DNA of 63,830 nucleotides, counting the filler, from Reclinomonas americana ATCC 50394 (lineage: Eukaryota): the NCBI GenBank assembly GCA_048213135.1. It is 17 parts of 17 records of this genome, joined end to end, with 100 filler letters (N's around TTAATTAATTAA, not from the genome) between each part and the next. Parts side by side here need not be neighbours in the genome. Positions count along the whole stretch, not along the records: positions 1 to 3,610 come from AFZH01016878.1; positions 3,711 to 10,352 come from AFZH01016880.1; positions 10,453 to 12,865 come from AFZH01016882.1; positions 12,966 to 16,000 come from AFZH01016884.1; positions 16,101 to 17,569 come from AFZH01016885.1; positions 17,670 to 20,261 come from AFZH01016887.1; positions 20,362 to 24,788 come from AFZH01016888.1; positions 24,889 to 25,898 come from AFZH01016890.1; 9 more parts are not named here. One strand, given 5' to 3'. A program made the translations under genes and the position numbers. Positions 1,175 to 59,900 of the stretch are shown here, piece after piece. Each line of letters opens with the position of its first letter. The stretch's first letter is position 1. A model generated the notes under the pieces. It saw only the letters and a program-made list of their open reading frames with translations. It searched no databases and had not been told where the DNA came from.

Positions 1175-3365
1175 ATGAGTGGAGGAAACGATCGCGTCAA
1201 CAACAAATACGTGTGCGCCTCTCTCTCTTTGTGTGCACCATTCAGCTGTTTCGCGTTGCTGGTGACTCTTGCTTCCCTCTTTGTGCGCAGAGAGCCCGCT
1301 GTCGGTGTCCCTGCATTGGTACAGCTCATGAGGGAGCAATATGCCAGAGCTGTCGAACATGGAGAACTGAGGGGCATGGTTGCGAGGCTCGAACGTGAGC
1401 TTGCCGCATGCAAGGAGAGGAAGAAGGCGCGCAAGAAAGAGCGCGATGCCGAACACCGCGGCGAACTTGCGCAGCGTGATGCCGAGCAACGCGCCGAACT
1501 TGCGCAGCGCGATGTCGAACGCGATCGCGTGCGGCTGGAGATGGATGAGCTCCGTCGTGTGCTGGCTGCACGCGAAGCTGATCTTTCGAAGCGTGATGAC
1601 GAGCTTCGCGCCGAACTAGCGAAGCGCGATGCCGAGCGCGAAGACCTGATTGCAAAATGGATACACTCCGTCAAATCCGGACGCGACGCGCAGGCAGTTG
1701 AGTATCCCTTCGCCTCGCACCTTCATGGCATTTTCCGATGAGCTGATTGTAGTTTGTGGCATTCTTCCACAGCGGTTTCGGATCACGGGAATCAAAATGG
1801 CCAGGCGTGCTGCGTCTGGCGCCTTCCGGAATCTCAAGGCGTGTATGGCCTGTCACATTGTGCCAGTCATGGTACGTCCGGGCGTTGAATTTCTTTGTCG
1901 TGCTCTGCCCATTGATATCATCTGGCACACAGCGATGTGAGGAGTACACTGTGGACCACTGGTGCTGCCAAATGGCTCAGCAGCGACAGCCCCATGCTGT
2001 GTACTGTCCGCGGAACTGCATAATGCTTCCACCGAAGTTGCACGTTCGGTTTGACAACCTCAGGCTCTTCGTGACGGTAACAGATCTAGAGATGATGATG
2101 CATCTGTTCTGCGTGTTGTTGTTACAATCACTTACCATGTGTATTTGTTGCGTCGTGCCGTTATTGCAGGCTGATGGACAATTGTTCGACCTCGAAAGGG
2201 GAAGATGCCTCACCTGGCAAGATTCTCGTTCTGTCGACGACAGCGTGATCGACTTCGAGATCCGAGACGATGCGCCGCCGAACCTGGATCGCAGCAAGGC
2301 GATTCACGTGTTCTCTTACACCGAGGACGCCGTTTCCTGGACGAAGCCGCACATGTCCCTTCTGCATGGACATGCACAAAATTGTTTCGAATGCTGTGTC
2401 ACGAATGGTCTCGTGGACCTTGCAGCTGGTACCGCTGATTCGATAGCCCGTGTCGAGGCCGTGAAGGAGCAAATTGCGGCTCTGGAGGCGGCTGCGAGAG
2501 CTGAACAGAATCTGGATGATGAAGATGCAGTTGCGTGGACATTGCAACAAAGTCGGCAATTCGTGTGTACTGAACCGACCTTGCTGATGTGCACAGTGGA
2601 CGTACAACGCGGCTATCTACCCAAGATCCGGATCTCTATCTGGAGTGTCATCTCGCGGCCGGTGTGGATCGCGAGACGATGACGACGGCGGCGACGACGA
2701 TGACGAGGGTGGTGGTGGCGGCGCTAATGGGCGATCCGGCAATCGCAATGGCCGCACCCCGTCGACTGTCACTGGTAAGGCAGCTGCAGATGCTGCAGCT
2801 GTCGTCGGAATGACGACCCGATCAGGGGGAGGAAGTGGCAGCGGTGCAGCCGTAGAGAGCTGCCTTCATGGCGAAGACTACGAGGAGGCCGATGCTTGCC
2901 GTTCCCGACAACAACAGTTGCTTGTTGATCTTGACAGCTGCTGCAGCGAGCTCGGAACTCTCAAACTCGGGGAAGTTCCGTGACCCCCGTCGATCTCTTT
3001 GTGTTTTGTGTGTCCCCGCACTCACTGTGCTTTCCATTTAGATTGTGTGCGAGGAGACCTTGTTGGAAGGGATCGACTGTCCCGATGCTGACGGGGGTGC
3101 AGAGGAGGAGGAAGACAACATCCGTCCGCGGTCGCACATGCCAGACGCCGAGTCGGAGCTGTCATTGATCGACGACGACGACGACGGCGATGACGACGAC
3201 GACGACGACGGTGCTCTCCGTCGCGCTCGTGGACATCTCGGCGGCGACTCGCGCGCGCAGTCGCCTTCTCTGCCGCACAAGCCGATCGCGATTCATGGCA
3301 TGCCTGAGATGACTGTGATGCCTTACGCGTCGCCCACTGGCGATGCATGCGCTGCTCGTCAATGA
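1175..3365 (+). CDS. Multi-exon gene: N-terminal coiled coil + HNH endonuclease domain (HNH_2-like) + acidic low-complexity tail
   Basis: Frame-consistent introns at about 1213-1290, 1697-1772, 1872-1932, 2077-2169, 2530-2596 and 2975-3041. The spliced product contains RITG...ACHIVP...RNCIML...LHVRFDN and a downstream KPHMSLLHGH motif, matching eukaryotic HNH_2 proteins. Confidence 0.65.
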
Positions 3366-3610
3366 GCATGAGCATTTAGCAGCGCTCCGTGTTCTAACAA
3401 CAAGAGCACACGACACCCTCCATAGAATCTCTCTCTCTCTTGCTGTCCTGCTCTCTCTCTCTCTTCAGTATTGCAGCGCAGACACCACTGAGAATGAAAG
3501 AACACACTTTGCGTCACCAGTGATCGCATGGCGAACCCAGCTGGCCAGGCAATCGGTTTCCCACGCATTTCGGCGCCAAACTTGTGTCATGAGTCATCTC
3601 ATTGACGGAA

Positions 3611-56900: not shown

Positions 56901-59900
56901 GTGGCCGTGGTCACCACCGCCTTCGGCAGCGTGATGGTGCTTGACAAGGCGGTGCTCGCCGCCGTAATGGCCACCGTATTGCCACTGATGCTCACCGCCG
57001 GTGCGGCGGAGCCGAGTGTAATGGTGGCACTCGCCGCCGTGCCGAGGTTGAGGGCCGTGCCGGCATTCAAGTTGATGGTTCCCGGGGCGGTGGTGGCATC
57101 AATGGTCACCGTCGGCGCCTTCAGTGTCGCCGTGTTGCTGGTGCTATTCAGGGTCAGCGACAGCGCCGTGGCCGAGTCCACCAGCTGGATCAAGTTGGTC
57201 GACATGGTGAGCTTGGACGGTGTGGCGGCATTGCCCTGCTCCAGCGTAATCGACGAGGTGGGATTGTCGGTCGCCTTGAGCAGAATCGTCTGACCGCGGC
57301 CTGTCAGCTGCTTCGTCTGAGTGGTCGAGTTGCCGCTCAGTGTCACGCTGTTGGCGCCGTACAGCGACATGTCGTAGGTGCTCATCTGGATGATGTGTGT
57401 GGCCAGCGTCACGCCCGTGTTGACGGTGAACGACGACATTGTCAGCGAGCCAAAGGTAGCCGACACCGCATTCATCGAGTAGGCACCCTGCGAGAATGGA
57501 CAAAAAGAAAAAGGAGTGTTGGAGGAGAAAACTAGAAGCGGGGGGGAAAAAAAAGGAGCTCACCGACAGCGTGCCAGTCAGGGCGGTACCCAGAATGTTG
57601 AGGGCGCTGGTGGCCGAGCCGAGGGCCAGCGTAGTAACCGGTGTGAGATTCAGCGTGGTCGGGTTGTGTGTGTGGGTAGTACCGCCCACAGTGGCCGTCG
57701 TGGCTGTCGCCGTCAGCGTACCGATGGTGGCGGTGAGGCTGGTGGCCGACGTGAGGGTCAGCGTCGGCAGCACCAGCGTCGACGCACCACCGGCCGTGAC
57801 CGAAATTGACGTGGATGCAACAATCAGTGAGCTGACAAGCGAGTTGCCGATGCGAATCGTGTTGGTCAGCGAGTTCCCGAGCGAGTCCAGCGTGAAACCA
57901 AGGTTGAGCGACGTGCCGTCAAATACAGTGGTCGTGCGACCATACAGACGAACGTCGGAGCACTCGCCGTAGAACGGCGCCACAGTGCCACCATTGTCCA
58001 TGCGGAAAACGCACGTGCCGGAGCTCGTGCCACGAGTGAGCACAAAGGTGCCCGGGGTACCCGGTGTGCTCGTGGCCGTCAGTCGCATGCTGACCTGATC
58101 AGTGCCGGTGCCAGCCAGCACATTCCACGACGTGCCGGCGGCCACCGTGCCGGCGCCCAGGTTGGCGGTAAAGGTCGGAATCGCACCGGTGCCACCGAGG
58201 GTCAGCGACGTGGTTGCATTGTGCACGAGCACCGGCGAAGTCGACGTCATGGACGTCCCCGACGTGATGGCCAGCGTGTTGGTCGTGCTTGCGCCCTGCG
58301 TGCCGACGACAACGTCGGGCGCAGAGAGCACGGCAGCGGTGCCAAAACGAGCGTCCAAGTTCGCCGCACGCATGTTGACATTGGTGCTGGTGGCCACGCC
58401 GAGCGAAATGGCTCCCGAGGTGGAGACGGCCAGCGACGCCAGGTTCATCGCATACGCGCCGCCGGTAAAGGTGGCAGAGGTCGCCGCCGCCAGCGTGTAC
58501 ACCGGCGACGTGATGGTGCTTGTGTCCGAGGTGACCGTCAGCGTCGGCGCCGTGAGGGTGGCCGAGCCGGCACCGCCGAGCGTGCCAATGGTCGCCGTCA
58601 GTGTGCGCGACGTCAATGTCGTGGCAGTCAACGATGCGCTGCCAATGTTGATCGCCGTCACAGTCGACTGACCGAGACGCAGTGTGCCCGGCGTGTCCAC
58701 CGTGAGGGTGTTGAGCGCTAGCAGCGAGGCCTGCGGGGCACACACAGACCATAGAGATCAGCTACCGTGAGGGGGGAACAAAATAAGGGAGAGACGAACC
58801 GAGAGGTTGCCGGTGGAGGAGCCGAGAACCAGGTTGCCGTGAGTGCCAGTGCCGACACCTTGGCCGGCACGCACAGTCAGGTCGGCACCGTTGGCGTTAC
58901 CGGCGGCCGCCGGACGGTCGGGACGCTGCACGGTCAGAGCAACAGCGAAGTCGTCGTGCAGTTGCAGCGCATTGCCGCCACCTCGCATGCTGACAATCTT
59001 GCCAGCTTGAATGTCAATGTTGCCATCGATCTGTGCCACAAAAGAAAGAGTGAGGCGATGAACACGCACATGGCACAGGGGCGCGCCGACGAAACTGTCG
59101 TCTGGGGCGAGTAGATGCGCGTCAACGTGGAGGCACTTGTGTTGCCAATGCTGACTTCGCTGGCCACAAACGTGCCGATCTGCACTTTGCCATTCGTGGT
59201 CGTTCCAGTGCCAGCGTCAAAGCCACTGCGAGATAAAATGGAGAGTCAACATCAGAACAGTGACAAGAAAAGGGAGAAAGAGGATGACAAGTGGCACGAC
59301 GCAACATGTCACCACCGACAGTGCCAGCAGTCGATTGGCCACGGTAGTAGGTCGGCGAGCCGGCAAAGGTGTTGGTCGTCTGCGTTTCGCGCTCCATCAC
59401 AAAGGTCTTGGAGACGACGCCACCACCATTGTTGCCGAGTGCCACGCGGTGAGTCGAGTCCAGCGCGCTGAGACCCGGATCGAGGCGCACAAACGACTGC
59501 GCCTGCAGGGTCAGCGTGGTCGCGGAGACCACCGACGTGGAGGTGAAGCCGCCAGAGAGTGTGGTCAGGCCGGTCACAGTCAACGTGCTGCCCAGTGTCA
59601 CACCCTGGTTCACTTGCAGAGTGCCGAGGACTGTGGTCAGTGAGCCGGCGCGACTCAGATTCACTCCAGTCACTGCACTGGCGCCCATGGTGACACTCTG
59701 TATAGGCATGAATAAAAATGAGTGACATGACTAGAAGGAGAATAATCAAAAAGGACAACACACCGCTGACGAATCAATCGTCATTGCCGCAGTGCTCGAC
59801 AGCGCCATGGTCGTGGCGGCCGTCACGGCAATGGTGGACGCGCTATTGTTGGTGTATGAGGTGGAAGTCAGATTGAGGGGTCCCGCGAGCAGTTGCATCT

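Follow-up and report, generated by a model that had tools for sequence, protein, structure and literature searches.

Roughly one in four of the introns that can be modelled in a stretch of the Reclinomonas americana ATCC 50394 genome (assembly GCA_048213135.1) appears to begin at a displaced 5' splice site (donor), reading GTTNNGT where the other donors read GTNNGT. These donors seem to form a real and sharply defined class whose consensus lies one base deeper in the intron. We see about an even chance that they open short GT-AG spliceosomal introns at which an unchanged 5' end of the U1 small nuclear RNA (snRNA) pairs one base out of register, a mode that would then be used by about a quarter of introns. 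The stretch analysed, hereafter the window, comprises 63,830 bases in 17 contigs of 1-8 kb each, which are joined by 100-base linkers (N44 + TTAATTAATTAA + N44), so that genes on either side of a linker need not adjoin in the genome. The DNA is eukaryotic, carries short introns of the GT-AG kind and has a G+C range of 51-63%.

Five donors of the shifted class, all on the minus strand, are firm. A 90-nucleotide (nt) intron at 7495..7584 in the fn3 gene runs from the donor A/GTTGCGTG (the slash marks the proposed exon-intron boundary) to the acceptor cttaacag; 807 open codons precede it and 804 follow, reading through it meets a stop after 15 codons, a single acceptor fits, and there is no in-frame GTNNGT rival. 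This donor is also the one chosen by a gene model in which every GT is scored alike (the any-GT model). The 65-nt intron at 48678..48742, with the donor T/GTTGCGTT and the acceptor cttcgcag, is flanked by exons of 377 and 421 nt that score 118 and 114 bits. At 59226..59305 an 80-nt intron extends from T/GTTGCGTC to tctcgcag, and the sole GTNNGT rival, 14 nt upstream, would use an acceptor without a pyrimidine tract. The 65-nt intron at 59031..59095 (A/GTTTCGTC, acceptor tggcacag) has a GTGCGT 26 nt downstream of its donor, which with the same acceptor would break the frame and leave an intron of 39 nt. The fifth is a 68-nt intron at 56738..56805, beginning GTTGCGT (A/GTTGCGTT, acceptor ctgtgcag) between exons of 682 and 781 nt that score 184 and 190 bits; it was absent from the 20 donors listed in an earlier sequence-only reading of the window.

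Each of the five lies between long and strongly coding exons, read-through gives a stop or a broken frame, and a good YAG follows a pyrimidine tract. None has an in-frame GTNNGT donor with a comparable acceptor, and the frames are restored only by a cut before GTT joined to a canonical YAG. A chain of five introns (76, 61, 93, 67 and 67 nt) that the sequence-only reading had drawn in the gene at 1175-3363 (+) leaves about 620 codons open until the stop at 3361-3363. By frame restoration with canonical YAG acceptors, at the five firm sites and along this chain, the cut would lie before GTT.

Enrichment at the level of donors was assessed with the any-GT model, a dynamic-programming gene model that combines codon log-odds, an acceptor matrix trained on the final 25 bases of introns and a prior on intron length. 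Introns were taken as best supported when both flanking exons scored at least 10 bits, the length was 45-250 nt and the acceptor score was at least 0 (n = 34). GTTNNGT starts 8 of these 34 introns, against a background of 86 among 8253 GTs (1.04%; p = 2e-9); one of the eight, at 30882, is on the non-dominant strand and probably spurious. GTNNGT starts another 11 (background 730/8253, p = 1e-4). The other 15 have different starts, several of which are normal donors slid by multiples of three, a displacement that the any-GT model is given to, as at 51460 in place of 51454. The top heptamer at donors is GTTGCGT: it opens 6 of the 34 introns, which takes up 6 of the 22 copies that the window contains (p = 4.5e-10). 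GTTGCGG comes next, with 2 of its 7 copies at donors. When all introns of the any-GT model are counted, GTTNNGT opens 9 of 75 on dominant strands and 2 of 31 on the other strands.

The three best genes, all on the minus strand, lie at 5081-10352, 47535-54274 and 54377-62690, and the shifted class accounts for 5 of their 21 introns. Within the window, this share and the 8 of 34 among the best-supported introns bear out the estimate of the sequence-only reading that roughly a quarter of introns belong to the class. The codon model overlooks weakly biased coiled-coil genes such as that at 1175-3363. A symmetric model in which both registers are scored equally recovers 14 of the 20 listed donors, and it makes up tiny exons in 33392-38220.

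The sequence rules of the class were drawn from a curated comparison of 17 shifted with 33 normal donors. G stands at -1 in none of the 17, as opposed to 30 of the 33 (p = 1.2e-10), and when only the three best genes are considered the counts are 0/5 and 13/15 (p = 0.0014). The first G of the intron occupies the place of the exonic -1 G, as had been claimed. At -1 the shifted donors mostly have A (13/17), which would pair with U10 of U1. Among the displaced-GT donors of the 34 best-supported introns, the base at +3 is T in all eight and another base in none, where the background counts are 86 and 391 (p = 8.5e-7). Normal donors have the form GTNNGT, in which +3 and +4 are nearly free (GC, GA, TT, AC and TC occur); the two free positions of the shifted donors, +4 and +5, are GC in 13 of 17, compared with 13 of 33 at the matching normal positions.

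Apart from the donor, shifted introns are ordinary. Shifted and normal introns have the same median length, 68 nt, and all of them end in YAG; 16 of the 17 shifted ones and 26 of the 33 normal ones have a CTNAY motif near the 3' end (9-36 nt). Lengths of shifted introns are spread evenly over the three residues modulo three, and 12 of the 17 are not multiples of three, which argues that these introns are not mis-called coding sequence.

Pairing was counted against the standard U1 5' end AUACUUACCUG (as in Table 2 of PMC4856993), which was assumed in place of this organism's own U1. On that assumption the shifted class makes 4.0-4.4 pairs when aligned canonically and 6.2-7.2 at +1; for normal donors the corresponding numbers are 7.1-7.3 and 4.9-5.4. 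The shifted class would therefore gain more U1 pairs out of register than in it, and it has U at +3 with no need for G at -1, both of which are marks of the +1 register. In the typical site A/GUUGCGU, the +1 G would lie opposite C9 of U1, in the slot of the usual exonic -1 G; the +2 U would be mismatched opposite C8, the +3 U would pair with A7, the +6 G with C4 and the +7 U with A3. Cleavage would stay ahead of the GU, one base upstream of the spot implied by the U1 register, and with such an offset the cut would be fixed not by U1 but by the steps that come after it (U6, U5 and the catalytic core). A shifted register accounts together for the lack of G at -1, the invariable T at +3 and the G+6/T+7 pair. 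The sequence itself shows that the motif class exists, that it is enriched at modelled donors, which rules it follows and that the frames agree with it; what we infer comprises the U1 register, the host U1 sequence and the actual cleavage site. The sequence-only reading had proposed a second pairing register as a major donor class, and of this the fit of the sequence rules to a +1 U1 register stands, so that the proposal is partly supported overall.

Several observations weigh against the shifted register. Duplex energies predicted for the shifted class by ViennaRNA duplexfold are weak, mostly +0.5 to -2.7 kcal/mol. A at -1 of the shifted donors (13/17) is commoner than A at -2 of the normal donors (13/33, p = 0.018), which indicates that the exonic consensus is not merely the normal one displaced by one base. 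The symmetric model can invent shifted donors, as it did at least at 25619, where alignment with a paralogue shows a GTGCGG donor seven bases upstream. The sample is one 64-kb window with about 50 introns, and the curated lists contain sites chosen in the sequence-only reading. Finally, no homologue was found to be similar enough across a shifted junction to verify it; at the 7584 junction, the best homologue is 36% identical and has an indel of about 30 residues at the junction itself.

The class might instead be read without any shift by a second, variant U1, for example one with A for C8, whose gene would have a 5' end matching AGUUGCGU (AG/UUGCGU), with cleavage at the nearest GU. Such an RNA would suit a class that is sharply defined and abundant, with GTTGCGT as the top donor heptamer and with GC at +4/+5 more uniform than in its normal counterpart (13/17 vs 13/33), and variant U1 genes are known in humans. 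The ordinary U1 in a shifted register, however, already covers every rule observed. Neither an snRNA nor any other Rfam family was found in the 64-kb window at gathering scores, and E values up to 1 added only microRNA-like hits below threshold. We regard a variant U1 as an unlikely explanation.

It is more doubtful still that the class is an artefact, either of mis-modelled introns whose true donors lie elsewhere, for instance at a GC 3 nt further on, or of an extra T in the assembly by which GTGCGT was miscalled. Four of the 20 listed sites do fail, several have in-frame rival donors, the assembly is in fragments (17 contigs, each of 1-8 kb) and the enrichment of the motif in raw counts is weak. 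Against this, chance placement of the class has p = 2e-9 under the any-GT donor model. A GC donor 3 nt downstream is impossible at 59095, which has TC and not GC at +3, and at the other firm sites the donors would be GCGTGG, GCGTTG, GCGTCG and GCGTTT, losing the G+5/T+6 that every other donor class retains. An overcalled T would leave G at -1 as in normal donors, yet none of the 17 has it there. Exons as long as 2.8 kb are open without a frameshift, which implies that indel errors are rare. The GT at +6/+7 was likewise rejected as the true donor, since it breaks the frame and has no consensus.

Donor choice could also depend mainly on a factor other than U1, namely the U6 ACAGAGA box, U5 loop 1, U1-C, Luc7 or Prp8, which would tolerate two or three bases between the two GUs. 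The normal donors, being just GTNNGT with +3/+4 nearly free, do suggest a two-anchor signal of this kind, and the weakness of the predicted U1 duplexes in the shifted class points the same way. Free spacing would nevertheless leave it unexplained why the extra base is always T and why the -1 G has vanished, and we regard this alternative as improbable.

A bulge within the canonical register, with one U at +2/+3 left unpaired (G/GU[U]GCGU), is very unlikely. GTTGCGT can be read as GTGCGT with one additional T, and registers that include a +2/+3 bulge are predicted for human sites in Table 3 of PMC4856993. A canonical register should, on the other hand, retain the preference for G at -1, which is found in 30 of 33 normal and 0 of 17 shifted donors. 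Moreover, any base could bulge, yet GTA-, GTC- and GTG-NNGT start 0 of the 34 best-supported introns and GTTNNGT starts 8 of them, with a background of 391 against 86. The data thus show neither the canonical pairing from -1 to +2 nor the unrestricted bulged base that belong to this register.

Two further candidates were dismissed: a U12-type class, for which the donors (GTTGCGT) and branch-like motifs (CTNAY) are not the [AG]TATCCTT donor and TCCTTAAC-like branch site of the U12-type consensus, and an introner or other transposon-derived family, for which mean local alignment scores (8.2 within the shifted class, 8.05 within the normal class and 8.3 between them) leave nothing in common beyond the splice signals. 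Bulged pairing, GC donors, introners and a T overcall all fit the observations worse than shifted U1 pairing as a major donor class.

The 20 donors of the sequence-only reading were checked one by one. GTT followed by G at +6 is present at all 20, the heptamer is exactly GTTGCGT at 12 of them, and +7 is T at 17, the others being 40422 (G), 3848 (C) and 9693 (C). The statement that G never precedes them also holds, with A at 15 sites and T at 5. As donors, 16 of the 20 are firm or plausible and four (3848, 9693, 36298 and 40941) lack support; the original observation is confirmed in part. Raw enrichment of GTTGCGT in the window is weak and barely above chance: it occurs 22 times, compared with an expectation of 15.13 +/- 3.82, and 22 was reached in 6 of 100 shuffles. 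The control GGTGCGT occurs 21 times, with 16.48 expected.

Three of the plausible sites lie in the gene at 1175-3363 (+). The 76-nt intron at 1697..1772 (A/GTTGAGTA) and the 67-nt intron at 2530..2596 (A/GTTGCGTG) belong to the five-intron chain, and for a further 67-nt intron at 2975..3041 (A/GTTCCGTG) read-through meets a stop two codons in. A rival to the donor at 1697 is GTATCC at 1702, which joins a different open frame. The GTATCC starts at 1702 (+) and 49847 (-) are alternative donors of slightly U12-like appearance; no U12-like branch motif follows them, and better normal donors are near.

Also on the plus strand, the plausible 64-nt intron at 10637..10700 (A/GTTGCGTG) has short and weakly coding exons. 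The 86-nt intron at 18314..18399 (A/GTTGCGTG) and the 57-nt intron at 18469..18525 (A/GTTGCGTC) are plausible neighbours, the latter hinging on the 69-nt exon that precedes it; the any-GT model draws a single 215-nt intron from 18311 instead. A 75-nt intron at 27850..27924 (A/GTTGCGTG) is plausible and has the rivals GTGAGG at 27813 and GTGCGC at 27820. The 81-nt candidate intron at 31500..31580 (A/GTTGCGTG) is plausible as well, and the stretch is in frame without a stop, so it could be exon. In the kinesin-like gene, a plausible 68-nt intron occupies 40422..40489 (A/GTTGCGGC, with G at +7). Its contig opens at 40123-40248 (+) in what we take, by eye, to be the end of a kinesin motor domain and a neck coiled coil after it. 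A possible extra member of the class, C/GTTGCGGC, was noted at 21813-21976 (+) with a 164-nt intron; two versions of the gene model use it and another favours GTCTGA at 21918. Together with 40422, it suggests a GTTGCGG sub-variant.

On the minus strand, a plausible 74-nt intron at 34536..34609 (T/GTTGCGTT) competes with an in-frame GTGTGT 12 nt downstream, which is favoured in the symmetric model. For the plausible 63-nt intron at 34710..34772 (A/GTTGTGTA), the any-GT model uses a GT 3 nt downstream. The donor T/GTTGCGTT at 35481 plausibly opens an intron of 46 nt (35436..35481), or one of 263 nt if its end is at 35219.

The four unsupported sites fail in different ways. An intron-like stretch of 114 nt runs from A/GTTGCGCG at 9580..9693 (-); as a donor, 9693 misses the best upstream frame unless a further event is allowed, and the models pick other donors. 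GTTGCGC at 3842..3848 (-) is followed 137 nt downstream by the end of its contig at an assembly gap, with no acceptor visible before it. GTTGAGT at 36292..36298 (-) is chosen by no gene model. Downstream of GTTGCGT at 40941..40947 (+), a stop occurs after 22 codons and several hundred pyrimidine-rich bases follow, the sole fitting acceptor being an AAG 207 nt away; this may be a stop codon and the untranslated region behind it.

Few open reading frames (ORFs) of the window contain recognisable Pfam domains, which are fn3, WD40, pseudouridine synthase, LRR_6, Peptidase_S74, ZZ and Sina/TRAF. The top matches of the pseudouridine synthase ORF are from fungi, animals and a nucleariid, at an identity of at most 52% over about 30% of the query. 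For the fn3 exon, the closest representative in protein collections is 36% identical. A protein search with the large exon 57147-58757 gave no match among longer proteins, and scans of metagenomes with exon 57564-58730 and with P0005 found no relative.

Two giant proteins of more than 2000 residues each are encoded at 47535-54274 (-) and 54377-62690 (-). Both are rich in Thr, Asn, Gly and Ser repeats, which are related between the two; the proteins as such can be aligned only with many gaps. The first of them has a C-terminal Peptidase_S74 (endosialidase chaperone) domain and a coiled coil. At 12966-16000 (-) there are two adjoining, very regular WD40-repeat genes with a mutual identity of about 75%. 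A model trained on the remaining window gives their codon usage a score near zero, and they represent either a different gene class or DNA of another source.

Repeats were seen elsewhere too. A coiled-coil gene contains intron-bearing repeat units of about 1.0-1.3 kb at 23587-24787, 24889-25898 and 25999-26692 (+), which are 80-92% identical. The contig end at 24572-24787 and the first bases of another contig, at 25999-26214, share 98.6% identity, meaning that these contigs overlap or are tandem copies. Low-complexity stretches of CT/GA type, about 110-140 nt long and 92-98% identical, occur on three contigs (35099-35217, 47013-47171 and 62542-62677). A long hairpin at 19431-19595 draws hits from many models of microRNA precursors, on either strand and always far under gathering scores, and is probably just an inverted repeat.

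A broader claim would be that, throughout the lineage, a +1-shifted U1 register or a matching second U1 is constitutive for about one in four introns, and that the U1 register is uncoupled from 5' cleavage genome-wide; we put its chance slightly below even. If it is true, the register in which U1 binds can drift as a population-level property and the cleavage site is chosen by later steps of the spliceosome, and this organism would be a natural setting in which to study the way that U6, U5 and Prp8 set the cut without U1. About one intron in four, here and in related genomes, would then be misplaced by gene finders that had been trained on GTNNGT donors.

Short introns of the fungal type begin with GTNNGT, contain a CTRAY branch site and end in YAG. 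The introns of the window resemble this type in the GTNNGT form of their normal donors, in a median of 68 nt, in a CTNAY motif that lies 9-36 nt before the 3' end and in the YAG acceptor. The string GTNNGT reportedly turns up in papers on Cryptococcus and Vishniacozyma, and a GTT-NN-GT class is not known to us from fungal-type groups. In open-access article text, no description of an abundant shifted donor class was found for any organism. Diplonemid donors, according to PMC12621601, are (G)/GTATG and unlike the GTTNNGT class.

Recognition of human 5' splice sites in a shifted U1 register was reportedly described by Roca and Krainer in 2009 and bulge registers by Roca et al. in 2012. In humans, shifted sites are a small minority and are regarded as an oddity that splice-site predictors miss. 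The donors described here share with them the GU followed by U at +3, with the remaining consensus one base downstream, and they would also share the +1 G at C9 of U1, the mismatch at C8 and the cut at the GU. They differ in frequency, as the human sites are few and the class seen here takes about a quarter of the modelled introns (5/21 and 8/34), and in their GC core (GUUGCGU), which matches the local GUGCGU norm.

Sections of PMC4856993 and PMC9311317 present both shifted and bulge U1 registers as established for human 5' splice sites, and bulge and asymmetric-loop registers are treated in part of Tan et al. 2016 (PMC4856993). Like those registers, the donors of the window imply a non-canonical geometry between 5' splice site and U1, with part of the consensus displaced by one base. 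Bulge registers keep the canonical pairing from -1 to +2 and involve various bulged bases, whereas the shifted donors lack G at -1 and have T as their only extra base. The class is therefore best read as the known shifted U1 register, which would occur in this genome at a very unusual frequency.

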